From a phage, in sequence record PZ242158.1: 64,000 bases of DNA, one strand, 5' to 3'. Under the pieces are notes generated by a model. It saw only the letters and a program-made list of their open reading frames with translations. It had not been told where the DNA came from and ran no database searches. Made by a program: the position numbers and the translations under genes. Each line of letters begins with the position of its first letter. Position 1 is the first letter of the stretch. This document shows, in pieces, positions 41,724-60,276 of the stretch.

Positions 41724-42994
41724 TGAGCGTTATTCAACAATTCGCTAACCCGATGAATCCGCGTGAAACTGTTTTACTGGCTCACGGCATGATTAAACGT
41801 GTCAGCATCAAACCTATCAAAGGTGCTGATCCTACAACAGGTATTAAAACCACTGTGTGGCAAGGTAAGAAAATTGAATCCAGCCACACCATCTCTTTAC
41901 TGATTTCTGAACTGGATTCCTCTGATAACCTGCTTCAAGGTGGTGAAGAAGTTTGGATCAGTATGGGTGATAAGCTGCTTAAACCTGGTCATCAAGACTC
42001 TGTCTCTGTTAAAATTGATGACAAGTGGGAAACCGTAACGCCGGGATGGATCGTAAATATCCCTTTGAAGGCAAACGAGCATAACGGTAAGACCTATTAC
42101 AAAGGCTCACTGGCTAAGATGGTCAAACTGGGTGCAGGAGAGGCTCCAGCAGCGACTCAGCAGCAAAAACAGCAACAAGGTGCACAATCACAAGGTCAGA
42201 AGCAGAAACCCCAGCAGAATGCCAATCAGGACGTTTTACGCATCTATGGGGATGTGACTCAGATTGTTGGCAACGTGGTTACTGTAAATGACCACAAGAT
42301 TGGCGAAGGTGCTATGGTTGTAACTGATGAGCAGCTTAAAGACCTGGTGGTAGGTGGTCGTGTTGCAGCCATTGTTGACAAAGACACCGGAAACATTATC
42401 AGTGGTTTCAAAGCCTATCCACCTAAGGCAGAGAACGGCACTCAAGGCTCTGGTGGCAAGCGTAAATCCTCTTACGACCCTATTGGTGTAGAGACGGGGC
42501 ATAGCATCAATGCTTTGCAGATCATCCTGGATCGCGGGTTTAAGGTGGATGACCCACTAAGCGTGGCTAAAACACTGCACGTAGTCACCATTGAGCTTAA
42601 GAAAGAGTATGCTCAAGCCACCAACCGAACTGAAGATGAAGTAGGTGCCAGTGTCGGTAATGCGGTGTTGAACGCTTGTCGCCGTATTGACAAGAAAACG
42701 AAAGTTGATGATTTTGCAGCGGCAATTACTGCAGAAGCAAAAGATGTCTTGACTAATCTGGCTGAGCCGTTGTACGATTGGATCAAGAACGGTGCTGAGT
42801 CCACTGACCATCAAGAACCTCAAGCTGCCAAACAGGAAGCCGCTCCACAGCAAAACACTGTAGACGCTCCTCCTGTAAATGATGAGGAAGATGACCCGAT
42901 GGGTCAGAATCCGGCGCAGTATGACTTCTGTGATGACATACCTTTCGCTCCGGTAGGTTTGCAATATGGCAAAAGTAGAATCCACGCATTGTAA
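41723..42994 (+). CDS. hypothetical protein, possible single-stranded DNA-binding protein
   Basis: 423 aa; central Gln-rich linker [20 protein letters not shown]; acidic tail with ...YDFCDDIPF; in replication module; assignment speculative. Confidence 0.3.
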
Positions 42995-43589
42995 GAGGTG
43001 CATCAAGTGCGGAGAGGTGAAAGACCTCTCCGAGTTCTACAAACACCCAAAGATGTCTGACGGTCATCTTAATAAGTGCAAAGAGTGTTGCAAGAAGGCC
43101 AGCAGGGAGGCTGACCAATTTTCCCACGACTCTTCAGAAAAAGGTGTAATACGCGTGCTGTACAAGGCTCAAAAGTGCAACAGCAAGCAAAGAGGTCACC
43201 CGCCTCCGACTTACACCAAAAAAGAGTTTAAGGAGTGGCTATACCTAAACGGTTACAAAGAGTTGTATGATCAGTGGGTAGCCAGCGGATACGACAAAAG
43301 GAAAAAGCCTTCTTGTGACAGGATAGATGATTTCAAAGGGTACTCTTTTGATAATATCCGTTTAACGACTTGGGGAGAAAATAAAGACAAGCAGACAGAG
43401 GATATTCTGTTGCATAGAAGCACCAGCGGTAGACGGTGTAAAAATGTAAGGAGGCTGGACATGAATGGCAACGTTCTTAAAGAATGGGTATCCCACAATT
43501 CTTGTAGAAGAGAAACCGGAATATGTGTTGATTACTACATTCATGAAAAAATTCCAGCCCCAGATGGATACCTCTATGAATACTTTTAG
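42966..43589 (+). CDS. free-standing HNH endonuclease with N-terminal zinc ribbon
   Basis: Cys4 cluster CKRCIKCG...CKECCK; HNH motif [23 protein letters not shown]. Confidence 0.6.
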
Positions 43590-43604: not shown

Positions 43605-43632
43605 GCCCTGCCCGAAAGGGTGGGGCATTTTT
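43605..43632 (+). terminator. intrinsic terminator (copy 2 of the duplicated hairpin)
   Basis: GCCCTGCCC-gaaa-GGGTGGGGC + ATTTTT; identical hairpin to 31944. Confidence 0.6.
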
Positions 43633-43651: not shown

Positions 43652-44068
43652 ATGACATTAGAAGATATCATTGTTAAACCTGAGAACTATGACCAATACA
43701 ACCTGTCAACTCAATCTGTAGACTTTGGATGCGCCACGGTCAGTGCGTGGCTGGTTAACGGAAAAGAGCTGGATAAATGCTTAGAAGCTCACATGTCTAT
43801 TAACAAGTTTCTGGATGAAAATACTCACTGGCTTGAGGGTGCAGGCGTATATGCTTCATGGTTGGAGAGTATGGGATTCGACTACCAATCTGAAGAGGGG
43901 TGGTGGAGCTATTTAGCTATCTGCCCAGAGACGCTGCAATGCTTCATGAAATATTCTGAAGATTTAGAGTATCGCGCTGTGGTTGACAGTGCTATTGCCC
44001 GTTATAGCCGTAAACCTTTTTCCCACGACATTAAAACTGTGGAAGAATTTGTTGAAGTTTTCTGTTGA
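43652..44068 (+). CDS. hypothetical protein
   Basis: 138-aa ORF, SD AAGGAGA. Confidence 0.4.
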   Translation: MTLEDIIVKPENYDQYNLSTQSVDFGCATVSAWLVNGKELDKCLEAHMSINKFLDENTHWLEGAGVYASWLESMGFDYQSEEGWWSYLAICPETLQCFMKYSEDLEYRAVVDSAIARYSRKPFSHDIKTVEEFVEVFC

Positions 44069-44164
44069 CACAGGTTGAAAGGTGTGCAATTATAACTTCA
44101 TAGAACGGGAGGACGTGATGAACGAAGAAAACTGGGATGTATAACTAACAGGAGGCCACTGCCC

Positions 44165-44362
44165 ATGATTTATAGAATCCGTGTAAGAGAAGATGCACCA
44201 GGTTGTTACTTTGACTGGCGTGGGTGGTGGTTTCTCCACCCGATGGATGGACTCACAGATAGAATGCTGGATGCTGCCCTTTATACAGATACCGATATAG
44301 AATATAATCTCTATCTGAAGGATGGTATAGATAACGGTCTATTTGAAGCAATTCCTGTGTAA
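44165..44362 (+). CDS. hypothetical protein
   Basis: 65-aa ORF, SD CAGGAGG. Confidence 0.35.
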   Translation: MIYRIRVREDAPGCYFDWRGWWFLHPMDGLTDRMLDAALYTDTDIEYNLYLKDGIDNGLFEAIPV

Positions 44363-44430: not shown

Positions 44431-44856
44431 ATGATCTATGAAATGCCAAAACTGATTCGTGATGATGCCCAAAACGCTCACACCATTATTATGGGCAAAC
44501 GTATGGATATTATTTGTCATAAAGATTTCTGGGAAGGAAGTTACTTCACAGAGTATTTTGGTAAACTGGACAATGGTCTGCTGATCCAGTTCTACACCGA
44601 TGCGGAAAACAACATTCACTGGGAGTTCGAAACTGAAGATATCCATAAACTTTTCACCTTCCTCGGTATTAAGGTTGAGGCCAAGTTTGAAGAAGGTGAG
44701 TGCGACGATTGTGGATTCTATGAGGTAACAGATTTCTACCTTCCAAGTGGTAAAAATCTCTACTACGAAAGCCACTTCGGCAACTCAAATATGCCACAGG
44801 GTTGGGATGAGTTTTTGGAAATTGCAGAAGAGGAGCTGGAATACCGTGATTATTGA
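44431..44856 (+). CDS. hypothetical protein
   Basis: 141-aa ORF, SD GGAGAA. Confidence 0.4.
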   Translation: MIYEMPKLIRDDAQNAHTIIMGKRMDIICHKDFWEGSYFTEYFGKLDNGLLIQFYTDAENNIHWEFETEDIHKLFTFLGIKVEAKFEEGECDDCGFYEVTDFYLPSGKNLYYESHFGNSNMPQGWDEFLEIAEEELEYRDY

Positions 44857-45304
44857 TACTGTAAAGGGAGATCTAATCTCCATTTTCAAGAAAGGGTCAG
44901 GCCACATGATCCACGGTTGTAACTGCTTTCACACAATGGGTGCAGGTATAGCGAAAGATATTGCCCGTGAGTTCCCTCAAGCACTGGCAGCCGACAAAGA
45001 GACTGCTTATGGTAATCTAGACAAGCTGGGTATGTTTTCTTGTTGGGAGCATTTTGCCAAGGCCAGGGTCGTATATGGAATCAACCTGTATACCCAGTTC
45101 TACCCAGGGCCCAATGCTGAATACTTCTCAATCATGAAAGGTTTTGAGCGAGTCAACGAGGTATTCAAAGGTATGTCATTGCCGTTCTACATTCCTAAAA
45201 TCGGATGCGGTATTGGAGGTCTAAAGTGGAAACATGTAGAAGATGTAATTAATCTTGCAACCACAGATATTGATGTGGTTGTAGTAGAGTACAAAAAGTG
45301 TTGA
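44846..45304 (+). CDS. macro-domain protein (ADP-ribose binding/processing)
   Basis: MIHGCNCFHTMGAGIAKDI (macro N-terminal Gly-rich loop), YGINLYTQFYPGP, SLPFYIPKIGCGIGGLKW (macro diphosphate-binding loop pattern); GTG start at 44846. Confidence 0.55.
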   Translation: MIIDTVKGDLISIFKKGSGHMIHGCNCFHTMGAGIAKDIAREFPQALAADKETAYGNLDKLGMFSCWEHFAKARVVYGINLYTQFYPGPNAEYFSIMKGFERVNEVFKGMSLPFYIPKIGCGIGGLKWKHVEDVINLATTDIDVVVVEYKKC

Positions 45305-45555
45305 CGACCATCTTCTGAGGTGATATAGTTTCCACAACAACTAAGAGAGGAGAGCACTGTGGAGACTAAAATCTTAATTCTTGCTGTGGTAGATACAACC
45401 GAAGGAGCTATATTCGAATCTGCAGGAGGGTATTTCTACCTACCATACGGAAAAAGAACTTCCGAGCCAAGTAAAGATTCAATCCTCAAAGTGTTCCCGT
45501 GTGCTTTCTGGCTGGAGATTTTGGTATAAGATTGCAGATGATTTGGGAGAGAATT

Positions 45556-45750
45556 ATGAGAAACAAGAAAGAACTTTACTCTGGTGAGTGGATCAACGAT
45601 CAACAGGTGGGAGAGGTAACCTGCTTCCGATGTTTTACCAGGTACAATCTTAAAACTGCACCAAAAAGTGTTCCAAAGACTGATGGTTATTATATAAAAG
45701 AACCTCATTGCCCAAAATGTAAATGCCGATTGTACTGGAGCAATCTGTAA
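45556..45750 (+). CDS. small zinc-ribbon protein
   Basis: Start at ATG 45556 after GGGAGAG; CFRCF...CPKCKC. Confidence 0.35.
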   Translation: MRNKKELYSGEWINDQQVGEVTCFRCFTRYNLKTAPKSVPKTDGYYIKEPHCPKCKCRLYWSNL

Positions 45751-45813
45751 GAGGTTGACATCTGAAAACTGCAGTGTATAATATACGCATAAACTAACAG
45801 AGAGCGATGTATT

Positions 45814-59282: not shown

Positions 59283-59716
59283 TCCCCTCTTTGTCAAGTG
59301 CTGCATGAAAAAATTTACAAGCTGGTATGGTAGCATTTTTGCGGCCTTGTTTACATTCAGGAGTGTATGTATAATCCTTGTTGTGTGGGCGTTTATACGT
59401 CTGGACGGTCAGAAGTCTGCAGGTTAATATCTAATCTATTGGCTGCTAACTATATCCCACACAAATGATAAGAAATATAATTGTTATATGCGTAAACTGT
59501 AACTCATGTTATCAATCCCTGTATGTATCGCCAGTGGTGCGCATAATGGGTATTATGTTAAATTGCCCGTAATGATAACAGTTCTCACAATGATAGGTAT
59601 TCTCATTCATCCACACAAAATAGGTTGCAAATGTTGTGCCACTGTGTGAACGGCCTGGCCTATTAATTTCTCTCACTGCCTCGATATTTGAGAATTGTTA
59701 TAAGAATGAGAAGTAT
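59283..59716. repeat. 434-bp perfect direct repeat, copy 1
   Basis: Identical by eye to 59843..60276 over the full 434 bp; contains a promoter-like TTGTTT, 17 nt, TATAAT. Confidence 0.8.
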
Positions 59717-59842: not shown

Positions 59843-60276
59843 TCCCCTCTTTGTCAAGTGCTGCATGAAAAAATTTACAAGCTGGTATGGTAGCATTTTT
59901 GCGGCCTTGTTTACATTCAGGAGTGTATGTATAATCCTTGTTGTGTGGGCGTTTATACGTCTGGACGGTCAGAAGTCTGCAGGTTAATATCTAATCTATT
60001 GGCTGCTAACTATATCCCACACAAATGATAAGAAATATAATTGTTATATGCGTAAACTGTAACTCATGTTATCAATCCCTGTATGTATCGCCAGTGGTGC
60101 GCATAATGGGTATTATGTTAAATTGCCCGTAATGATAACAGTTCTCACAATGATAGGTATTCTCATTCATCCACACAAAATAGGTTGCAAATGTTGTGCC
60201 ACTGTGTGAACGGCCTGGCCTATTAATTTCTCTCACTGCCTCGATATTTGAGAATTGTTATAAGAATGAGAAGTAT
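59843..60276. repeat. 434-bp perfect direct repeat, copy 2
   Basis: Offset exactly 560 bp from copy 1, separated by a unique 126-bp spacer (59717..59842). Confidence 0.8.

Follow-up and report, generated by a model that had tools for sequence, protein, structure and literature searches.

The gene at positions 44846..45304 (+ strand) of the window (the whole 64-kb stretch of phage DNA analyzed here) encodes a real, well-conserved stand-alone phage macrodomain of 152 amino acids plus stop. It is the ortholog of bas59_0089 of phage EduardKellenberger, whose product is 99% identical, and a homolog of T4 tk.4/adfM, and we consider it an ordinary additional member of the T4 Tk.4/AdfM family. By analogy with characterized relatives, the protein is probably an ADP-ribosylglycohydrolase of the ALC1/TARG1 class that undoes DNA ADP-ribosylation by DarT2 and so defeats the DarTG2 defense, a reading that we hold with a fair but limited degree of confidence. 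The anti-DarT2 role has already been published for the T4 homolog and is not new with this gene.

Gene structure and selection

The open reading frame extends from a GTG at 44846 to a TGA at 45302-45304 on the + strand and gives a 152-aa product. An earlier, sequence-only reading had placed a macro-domain gene here with the same start, and both the gene and the start were retained. We favor this start because homologs begin at the equivalent residue (MIVKYIKGD in T4 Tk.4, and MIIDTVKGD, from an ATG, in the homolog of the Krischvirus G37-3), because the annotations of EduardKellenberger and A6-1 use the identical GTG, and because both the GTG and a Shine-Dalgarno-like GAGGAG located 10 nt 5' of it (44830..44835, + strand) are kept in phage A6-1, whose ortholog is 80% identical. 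In A6-1, an in-frame stop also separates the upstream alternative ATG (44807) from the GTG. The homolog starts and this stop rule out two longer gene models, one from ATG 44807 (165 aa, as in the PMBT16 record) and one from GTG 44747 (185 aa, as called by an ORF finder). The gene is under purifying selection, with a dN/dS of ~0.10 relative to the A6-1 ortholog, at a dS (~1.24) that is near saturation.

Fold and family membership

Both macro-fold motifs named in the sequence-only reading are present in the translation, where HGCNCFHTMGAGIAKDI spans residues 23-39 and SLPFYIPKIGCGIGGLKW spans residues 111-128, and the fold suggested there was borne out by profile and structure searches. Residues 22-134 match positions 1-117 of the 118 in the Pfam profile PF01661 (Macro) with an E value of 1.4e-5 and 25.5 bits, relative to a gathering score of 22 bits, and the macro signature is far above chance level. 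The AlphaFold2 model (pLDDT 94.6, pTM 0.89) contains seven strands and seven helices, predicted to form the three-layer alpha/beta/alpha macro fold around a central mixed sheet. Foldseek placed TARG1, Poa1p and the DarG macrodomains of Thermus and M. tuberculosis on top (E 2e-9 to 1e-7, TM 0.73-0.75), and the best 50 of the 150 PDB chains at E <= 0.001 are macrodomains or macrodomain-scaffold designs. A profile of 74 homologs matches BT1257, SCO6735, TARG1, DarG and Poa1p at E values of 6e-16 to 2e-11.

The protein matches PHROG 335 (E 2.5e-59), as does T4 Tk.4 (E 1.3e-65), and the two align over 152/155 residues with 39% identity and 66% positives (E 1e-43). Tk.4 is also a stand-alone phage macrodomain of ~150 aa, and shares the motifs HGCNCFHTMG(A/S)G, NLYTQF(x)PGPN and P(K/R)IG(C/A)GIG, including a glutamine at the position of the DarG lysine. 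Both genes are surrounded by small genes in a virulent myovirus of E. coli, but the lineages differ (Vequintavirus here, Tequatrovirus for T4), as do the neighborhoods: the gene studied here is located downstream of the DNA polymerase gene, and tk.4 is flanked by vs and tk. Single-domain, phage-encoded and with no toxin linked to it among the eleven flanking ORFs, the protein resembles the Tk.4/AdfM family in these respects. PhiKZ gp104 (AdfM) is also found in PHROG 335 but is distant, with only 21% identity to the protein studied here (E 8e-4). Homologs were detected by tblastn in 2,729 of 50,697 phage records, and a bacterial homolog from Pelagimonas (41% identical) has housekeeping genes as neighbors and no toxin close to it, which hints at nothing more than orphan status.

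DarG was the only match of the protein in PADLOC (E 9.6e-13, profile positions 3-143/329) and antitoxin_DarG (NF048014) the only one in NCBIfam (E 5.2e-12, positions 2-144/338). The NF048014 score of 45.7 bits does not reach the equivalog cut-off of 250, whereas PhiKZ gp104 scores 133-138 bits on DarG models. The DarG macrodomains of Thermus aquaticus (5M31/5M3E) and M. tuberculosis (5M3I) have the same fold (Foldseek E 8e-9 to 1e-7, TM 0.74), and the Asn of their first strand-loop (N26 here) and the two glycine-rich loops are conserved in the phage protein. However, the phage protein stops at residue 152, right past the macrodomain, and thus has no counterpart of the C-terminal DarT-binding domain of DarG; K80 of DarG (FPTK) is replaced by Gln (YTQ), and the darT neighbor of DarG systems is absent near the gene. 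The missing C-terminal domain, darT neighbor and lysine, together with the sub-cut-off score, rule out a bona fide DarG antitoxin.

In Foldseek, the top match is human TARG1/OARD1 (4J5R/4J5S; E 2.3e-9, TMq 0.73), which cleaves thymidine-linked ADP-ribose and has the same size and topology, with 22-25% identity and a catalytic dyad that is not kept in the phage protein. SCO6735 of Streptomyces coelicolor (5E3B) and BT1257 (2FG1/2AFC), both of the ALC1-like class, are the best PDB profile matches (E 6e-16 to 4e-15); they are about 24-26% identical to the phage protein and, like it, stand alone without a toxin partner. Yeast Poa1p (6LFQ-6LFU) ranks fourth in Foldseek. The N-terminal motif I-H-x-C-N-C...G-x-G-I-A is common to Poa1p and the phage protein and contains the His that was mutated in 6LFS (H23A); IHGCNCFHTMGAG of the phage protein aligns with IHSCNCNGSWGGG of Poa1p, with H23 kept and S30 replaced by T30 (the residue roles come from the titles of PDB mutant entries only). 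Poa1p is longer (~180 aa, with insertions), and its pairwise HMMER alignment with the phage protein alone covers only the two domain ends, whereas the 74-sequence profile spans the whole domain.

Active site

Catalytic-site alignments were taken from HMMER profiles; a seven-reference MAFFT alignment was set aside because the middles of SCO6735 and BT1257 were misaligned. We predict that ADP-ribose binding and catalysis involve D9, H23, N26, the G32-A-G34 loop, Q84 and the G120-C-G-I-G-G125 loop. Across the 74 homologs, Q84, N26, G24, G34, G120, G122 and P117 are invariant, H23 is kept in 72, and N26, G32-A-G34 and G120-x-G122-x-x-G125, which form the predicted ADP-ribose pocket, are invariant or nearly so. 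The whole ligand pocket is kept down to 38% identity.

Where DarG (K80) and TARG1 (K84) have their catalytic lysine, the phage protein has Q84. In the HMMER alignment with 5M3I, T83-Q84 faces the T-K of INFPTKK, the DarG FPTK motif, and in the profile alignment with 4J5R, YTQ faces ITK and GCGIGG faces GCGLDR, such that Q84 and G124 stand at the TARG1 catalytic dyad K84/D125. TARG1-type catalysis is ruled out by the absence of this dyad. By comparison, NaYTQ aligns with NMIGQ of 5E3B and 2FG1, and both SCO6735 and BT1257 share with the phage protein the Gln at the lysine position and a Gly/Ala in place of TARG1 D125. Judging from these alignments, the active site is of the glutamine type, as in SCO6735, whereas DarG and TARG1 have the lysine type. 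The SCO6735 mutants Q85A and Q85E are dead, and Q85 is essential to hydrolysis (PMC9411070).

Around this site, the phage protein differs from SCO6735. The mobile loop of SCO6735 is five residues longer and bears K89 and K94 (Gln-to-Tyr spacing of 14, versus 8 here), whereas the corresponding loop of the phage protein, FYPGPNAE, with eight residues from Q84 to a conserved Tyr, is short, of TARG1 length and lysine-free. SCO6735 K34, in the first glycine loop, corresponds to A33, a position occupied by Ala in 69 and by Lys in 2 of the 74 homologs. The SCO6735 fragment is also strongly basic (pI 9.7), in contrast to the near-neutral phage protein (pI 7.6); PhiKZ AdfM is acidic (pI 5.05) yet works on DNA. 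The glutamine-type active site had been missed in the sequence-only reading.

Genomic context

Vequintavirus (rV5-like) myoviruses of E. coli match the window at 96-99% identity, in agreement with the lytic phage assumed in the sequence-only reading. That reading had also placed the gene among uncharacterized early genes, which fits its position: the gene is downstream of the DNA polymerase gene, in a series of short + strand ORFs that match no Pfam family, in a region enriched in sigma-70-like promoters (17 found versus 9.5 +/- 2.9 expected). Of the eleven flanking ORFs, one has only a phage zinc-binding domain by Pfam and the other ten match nothing in Pfam; one of these ten matches a PHROG endonuclease VII family (HNH-like), and the other families found were of unassigned function. 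We found no link to NAD or ADP-ribose metabolism among the eleven flanking ORFs by Pfam and PHROG, and neither an ADP-ribosyltransferase family nor darT among the ten to eleven scanned against Pfam; the eleven nearest ORFs hold no toxin partner. No tRNA was detected in the whole window, and an Rfam scan of 43-62.5 kb found no matches.

The ORF immediately upstream (44431..44856, + strand) encodes 141 aa, with a match to PHROG 8157 (function unassigned) and none to Pfam. The region of the GTG at 44846 overlaps the stop of this ORF by 11 nt, from which we infer that the two genes are probably co-transcribed and translationally coupled; the location of the GAGGAG within the 3' end of the upstream ORF also suggests coupling. 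A sigma-70-like promoter candidate at 44065..44093 (+ strand; TTGACA-17-AATTAT with an extended -10 TG, a consensus match only) precedes a small ORF at 44165..44362 (+ strand; 65 aa, PHROG 9903, function unassigned), and a terminator-like hairpin is present 5' of this candidate at 43605-43626. The candidate promoter likely starts a putative three-gene transcription unit that begins with the small ORF and ends in the macrodomain gene. The next sigma-70-like candidate (45301..45329, + strand; TTGACG-17-TATAGT with TG) overlaps the macrodomain stop codon and may be the start of the next small-gene unit.

Proposed function

We propose that the protein is probably expressed early, from host-type promoters, and would bind the ADP-ribose that host DarT2 puts on thymidine N3 at TNTC motifs in single-stranded DNA of the phage. 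Hydrolysis of the ribose-base bond would release free ADP-ribose and replicable DNA, and with replicable DNA restored, the abortive defense by DarTG2 would fail. The protein would thus be an ‘orphan antitoxin’ that corresponds to the enzymatic half of DarG but has neither the C-terminal domain for binding DarT nor a toxin partner. Catalysis would be of the glutamine type and water-mediated, as described for SCO6735, with Q84 positioning the distal ribose, and would be independent of the lysine on which DarG and TARG1 rely.

The anti-DarT interpretation is supported by the full-length homology to T4 Tk.4, deletion of which sensitizes T4 to DarTG2. T4 tk.4 was the single significant HIDEN-SEQ hit on a DarTG2 host (bioRxiv 10.1101/2025.11.20.689424), and a clean tk.4 knockout is DarTG2-sensitive, genetic evidence from a 2025 preprint in which Tk.4 was renamed AdfM (‘anti-DarT factor macrodomain’) because of this phenotype (10.1101/2025.11.20.689424). 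Of the two genes, T4 tk.4 is the one with a phenotype, DarTG2 sensitivity upon deletion. [quoted passage not shown] Cells are rescued from DarT by SCO6735, which cleaves thymidine-linked ADP-ribose (PMC9411070). DNA de-ADP-ribosylation by Tk.4-type phage proteins would be argued from PhiKZ gp104 and SCO6735, the evidence for T4 Tk.4 being genetic only. Reversal of DarT-type DNA ADP-ribosylation, raised as one option in the sequence-only reading, gains plausibility from the homology to T4 Tk.4, the membership of PHROG 335 and the DarG-only matches in PADLOC and NCBIfam. Neither TNTC nor TCTC is depleted in the 64-kb window (TNTC, the DarT2 motif, occurs at ~2,400 sites, with an observed/expected ratio of 1.06-1.07), which shows that targets are plentiful and suggests that the phage cannot escape by motif depletion, at best weak support for the proposed role. 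Counted against it are the identities of only 39% to T4 Tk.4 and 21% to the biochemically tested PhiKZ AdfM, the absence of the catalytic Lys of DarG/TARG1 and of both the DNA-positioning lysines (K34, K89) and the longer mobile loop of SCO6735, and the near-neutral pI. We found no report in the literature on how Vequintavirinae (rV5-like phages) fare against DarTG2.

Processing of soluble ADP-ribose derivatives, whether by a Poa1p-like phosphatase, an O-acetyl-ADP-ribose deacetylase or an enzyme that degrades NAD signals or toxic metabolites of TIR, SIR2 or RES-type defenses, appears unlikely to be the function of this protein. Such a function would fit the ‘phosphatase’ or ‘Poa1p-like’ label given to the family by GenBank and PHROG, the rank of Poa1p among the best sequence and structure matches, and a genomic survey that favors low-molecular-weight ADP-ribose derivatives as substrates of phage macro domains (PMC9503650). 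The N-terminal IHxCNC is also kept, and its His, equivalent to Poa1p H23 and present in 72/74 homologs, leaves room for a small-molecule substrate. However, the annotation originates from Poa1p, and ‘phosphatase’ is an old domain-name transfer (‘A1pp motif’) with no measured activity behind it. The substrate of Poa1p is the soluble metabolite ADP-ribose-1''-phosphate, and no phage phenotype is associated with such an activity, whereas the sole phenotype in the family, that of T4 tk.4, is a specific sensitization to the DNA-modifying DarTG2. The tested ALC1/TARG1-class enzymes (DarG, TARG1, SCO6735 and PhiKZ AdfM) all cleave thymidine-linked ADP-ribose. The T4 phenotype likewise speaks against ADP-ribosylated RNA or protein (uracil-linked ADP-ribose on RNA, Glu/Asp-linked ADP-ribose) as the main substrates, by which the protein would counter other host ADP-ribosyltransferase toxins or tune ADP-ribosylation by the phage itself. 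SCO6735 and TARG1, the closest characterized proteins, also hydrolyze protein- and uracil-linked ADP-ribose (ssRNA) (PMC9411070, PMC13036486), and SCO6735 has the glutamine-type site as well, but a Pfam scan of ten flanking ORFs detected no ADP-ribosyltransferase domain, and CmdT-type adenine ADP-ribosylation of mRNA is described as irreversible (PMC13036486). We regard this function as improbable; a broad substrate range could coexist with an anti-DarT2 role.

The invariant Q84 and N26 and the pocket kept in 74 homologs form the pattern expected of an enzyme, and a non-catalytic role, in which the protein would bind ADP-ribose or ADP-ribosylated DNA or inhibit DarT2 directly and so serve as a stoichiometric inhibitor or a sensor, is very doubtful. 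The classical Lys/Asp dyad is missing, and in vitro the dead mutants SCO6735 Q85A, DarG K80A and TARG1 K84A retain inhibition of DarT through interaction (PMC9411070). Yet the dedicated DarT-binding domain of DarG is absent from this protein of only 152 aa, Q85 of SCO6735 is needed for hydrolysis, and the equivalent-Asn mutation weakens PhiKZ AdfM. A variant of the enzymatic reading, that the Tk.4/Vequintavirus clade is mechanistically distinct and was recruited apart from the lysine-type PhiKZ AdfM, with a glutamine site (SCO6735/ALC1-like) and perhaps broader substrates, is put forward only tentatively. As the lysine-rich DNA clamp of SCO6735 is absent, substrates broader than, or different from, DarT2 damage alone might follow, and uracil-ADPr RNA, protein ADPr and soluble ADPr derivatives might be among them; the protein would then guard the phage from more than one ADP-ribosylating defense simultaneously.

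Implications

Assignment of an anti-DarT2 hydrolase function would matter for annotation because homologs are common and most copies are labeled ‘hypothetical’ or ‘phosphatase’. The replacement of lysine by glutamine is the one point of mechanistic interest, and the protein, a smaller scaffold without the DNA clamp, is a natural test of the water-mediated mechanism proposed for SCO6735. The rV5-like phages are candidates for therapy and biocontrol, and if the protein is indeed an active anti-DarT2 hydrolase, it would help to account for their possible ability to withstand a DNA-ADP-ribosylating defense present in E. coli. The ‘orphan antitoxin’ form of counter-defense (AdfN against DarTG1, AdfM against DarTG2) would then reach a third myovirus lineage.

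Fold and class of the macrodomain protein

We identified Macro (PF01661) as the sole Pfam match of the 152-residue window protein, at 25.5 bits (gathering score 22) and across nearly the entire profile. An AlphaFold2 model built from an alignment of 74 homologues is confident (pLDDT 94.6, pTM 0.89). Its closest solved structures in Foldseek are human TARG1, yeast Poa1p and the DarG macrodomains of Thermus aquaticus and M. tuberculosis, followed by SCO6735 and BT1257 (E 2e-9 to 1e-6, TM about 0.7-0.75 for the whole set), and a family sequence profile recovered the same set from the PDB (E 6e-16 to 2e-9). The Pfam score, the model and these neighbours bear out the macro fold proposed from the sequence. 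The Foldseek and profile neighbours further place the protein in the ALC1/TARG1-like class, and we therefore rejected the MacroD/YmdB class.

The top viral structural match in BFVD is A0A481YV05 of Marseillevirus LCMAC103, a 302-residue giant-virus protein (40% identity, TMq 0.92, rmsd 1.5 Å). Its label, ‘SNF2 subfamily protein’, known here from annotation, recalls the ALC1 architecture of an SNF2 ATPase joined to a macrodomain.

Gene structure and selection

The gene (44846-45304, + strand) is read from a GTG at 44846 and closed by a TGA at 45302-45304. Both strings quoted in the sequence-only reading occur in its translation, HGCNCFHTMGAGIAKDI at residues 23-39 and SLPFYIPKIGCGIGGLKW at residues 111-128. 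The motif GAGGAG (44830-44835) precedes the GTG by 10 nt, and the start overlaps the stop of the upstream ORF (44431-44856) by 11 nt, suggesting translational coupling of the two genes.

Two longer versions were considered and disfavoured, one from GTG 44747 (ORF finder) and one from ATG 44807. The latter is annotated in the related phage PMBT16 (7208-7705 of record L001, equivalent to 44807-45304 of the window), where the gene is 39 nt (13 codons) longer and begins within the upstream gene. The start at 44846 is supported by the equivalent residue being the ATG start of T4 Tk.4 and of the Krischvirus G37-3 protein, and by annotation of the same GTG in phages EduardKellenberger (Bas59) and A6-1. 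The A6-1 orthologue retains both GAGGAG and GTG and has an in-frame stop immediately 5' of the GTG; because this stop lies inside the extension, the PMBT16 annotation is probably wrong. Compared with the 80%-identical A6-1 orthologue, dN/dS is ~0.10 at a dS (~1.24) that is near saturation, and the gene is under purifying selection.

Genomic context

The 2.8 kb around the gene share 96-99% identity with over 100 E. coli myoviruses of the Vequintavirus (rV5-like) group, and the protein shows 99% identity to bas59_0089 of the BASEL phage EduardKellenberger. The DNA polymerase lies ~6 kb 5' of the gene, which belongs to a long series of small + strand ORFs. Its predicted setting among uncharacterised genes was recovered, as 9 of 11 flanking ORFs match solely PHROGs of unknown function. 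Pfam matched just one of the 11, an 83-residue ORF two genes 3' of the macrodomain gene (45499-45750, +), to its phage zinc binding domain (PF23903, E 1.6e-22).

The interval from 42.8 to 47.3 kb is enriched in matches to sigma-70-like promoters (17 observed, 9.5 ± 2.9 in shuffles). These matches include a perfect consensus, TTGACA-16-TATAAT (45755-45782, +), between two small ORFs. The ORFs 44165-44362 and 44431-44856 may form a three-gene unit with the macrodomain gene, given a terminator-like hairpin (43605-43626) and, 3' of it, a promoter candidate (44065-44093, +). A further promoter candidate overlaps the stop codon of the macrodomain gene. As judged by consensus matching, the pattern is consistent with a multi-promoter early region in which the host polymerase would transcribe the macrodomain gene.

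The hairpin follows the remaining one of the 11 flanking ORFs, a 207-residue ORF (42966-43589, +) that matches PHROG 1035, ‘endonuclease VII’ (E 2.6e-41), and, more weakly, HNH endonucleases. This ORF occupies a segment of about 638 bp (42946-43583) that is present in PMBT16 and missing from EduardKellenberger and A6-1, and looks like a free-standing mobile gene of the homing-endonuclease type inserted 1.3 kb 5' of the macrodomain gene.

Elsewhere in the window, a perfect, non-coding 434-nt direct repeat (59283-59716 and 59843-60276, 126 nt apart) has stop codons in each of the six frames. In Bas59 it is present as a single copy at 95% identity. The zone is ORF-poor and low in GC (37%), its GC skew switches sign, and Rfam and tRNA scans of it gave no match. 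It probably corresponds to an intergenic region of roughly 2 kb in the related phage Bas54, flanked by divergently transcribed genes, in which no transposon insertions were tolerated according to the HIDEN-SEQ preprint (10.1101/2025.11.20.689424). Possible roles of the zone are those of an origin, a regulatory region or a non-coding RNA region.

Relationship to the Tk.4/AdfM family

By sequence and architecture, we assign the protein to the macro superfamily and, within it, to the Tk.4/AdfM family (PHROG 335, ‘phosphatase’, E 2.5e-59). T4 Tk.4, also in PHROG 335, is 39% identical over its full length (E 1e-43). In the HIDEN-SEQ preprint of November 2025, tk.4 was the only significant transposon-sequencing hit for T4 on a DarTG2 host, and its clean knockout made T4 sensitive to DarTG2. 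The authors gave the gene the new name adfM, ‘anti-DarT factor macrodomain’; that its product removes ADP-ribose from DNA is their proposal, presented without an assay (10.1101/2025.11.20.689424). A 2026 Cell Reports paper independently gave the name AdfM to PhiKZ gp104, which took DarT2-made ADP-ribose off a TNTC ssDNA oligonucleotide in vitro and rescued cells from DarT2, with activity reduced by mutation of a conserved Asn (PMC13309987). PhiKZ gp104 also belongs to PHROG 335, yet shares just 21% identity with the window protein (E 8e-4).

Homologues are present in 2,729 of 50,697 phage records, and near-identical proteins have been deposited in many, in part under the names ‘macro domain protein’ or ‘phosphatase’. 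Our literature search found no experiment on any Vequintavirus copy; Bas54 was studied with HIDEN-SEQ, and a DarTG2 experiment on it is not among the results in the available part of that preprint (10.1101/2025.11.20.689424).

The T4-like Krischvirus vB_EcoM_G37-3 carries a macrodomain gene (L005, 3001-3456) in the place of T4 tk.4, with regB and tk on either side. Its product is 67.5% identical to the Vequintavirus protein, compared with 39% for T4 Tk.4, which suggests that the gene was laterally exchanged between Krischvirus and Vequintavirus lineages with common E. coli hosts. A stand-alone bacterial homologue (41% identical) is encoded on the Pelagimonas phthalicica chromosome (L007, 6001-6459) among housekeeping genes (peptidase M23, tryptophan halogenase, biotin genes). 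No ADP-ribosyltransferase was found among the neighbouring genes, and the homologue is thus an ‘orphan’ like SCO6735.

Active site

HMMER alignments place T83-Q84 of the window protein opposite the T-K of DarG (INFPTKK; K80) and TARG1 (LITKK; K84), and G124 opposite TARG1 D125. A TARG1-type enzyme was rejected, as the dyad is absent. DarG is the only model matched in PADLOC and in NCBIfam, through its macrodomain part (E about 1e-12), at a score far under the equivalog cut-off; with no C-terminal domain, darT neighbour or catalytic lysine either, identity as a DarG antitoxin was also rejected.

Q84 is invariant among the 74 aligned sequences (homologues down to 38% identity), as are G24, N26, C27, M31, G34, N80, Y82, T83, P117, G120 and G122. 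The YTQ motif recurs in T4 Tk.4 and the glutamine is kept in the Pelagimonas homologue, while PhiKZ gp104 has a DarG-like FPTK. SCO6735 and BT1257 (NMIGQH) share the glutamine, which is reportedly common to ALC1 homologues (PMC9411070). SCO6735 hydrolyses thymidine-linked ADP-ribose and shields cells from DarT, its activity is abolished in Q85A and Q85E, and a water-mediated, backbone-assisted mechanism has been proposed for it (PMC9411070). Given that SCO6735 is active with a glutamine, the missing lysine does not argue against DNA de-ADP-ribosylation, and the analogy points to a SCO6735-type mechanism.

The likeness to SCO6735 is partial, covering the glutamine but not the DNA-clamp loop. 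SCO6735 has a mobile loop that is five residues longer and contains lysines, both absent from the window protein; the spacing from Q84 to the conserved Tyr is 8 residues as opposed to 14, and A33 replaces the DNA-positioning K34. The pI is near neutral (7.6, versus 9.7 for the SCO6735 fragment), but overall charge is not decisive, because the acidic PhiKZ AdfM (pI 5.05) works on DNA.

Proposed function

We consider it probable, on balance, that the protein is an orphan-antitoxin-like ADP-ribosylglycohydrolase. It would strip DarT2-installed ADP-ribose from thymidines in single-stranded phage DNA and would thereby neutralise DarTG2. The window shows no avoidance of TNTC, the DarT2 motif (observed/expected about 1.06), so the phage DNA offers ample DarT2 targets.

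Action on soluble ADP-ribose derivatives would fit the label ‘Poa1p-like phosphatase’, the conservation of His23 and the argument that phage macro domains target mainly low-molecular-weight ADPr derivatives (PMC9503650); as the substrate, these nevertheless seem unlikely to us. We are equally doubtful that ADP-ribose on RNA or protein is the main substrate, although SCO6735 and TARG1 also process such targets. Both activities could coexist with an anti-DarT2 role. A binder or inhibitor acting without catalysis appears quite improbable.

The sequence-only reading correctly recognised a macrodomain gene (both strings, Pfam Macro, structure model), and its interpretation as a counter-defence factor against DarT-type ADP-ribosylation is supported. 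The finding is an ordinary one, the anti-DarTG2 role of the family having been published for T4. Mild surprise attaches only to an active site of the glutamine type within a compact scaffold, which suggests that Tk.4-type and PhiKZ-type AdfM are different branches of the ALC1-like class.
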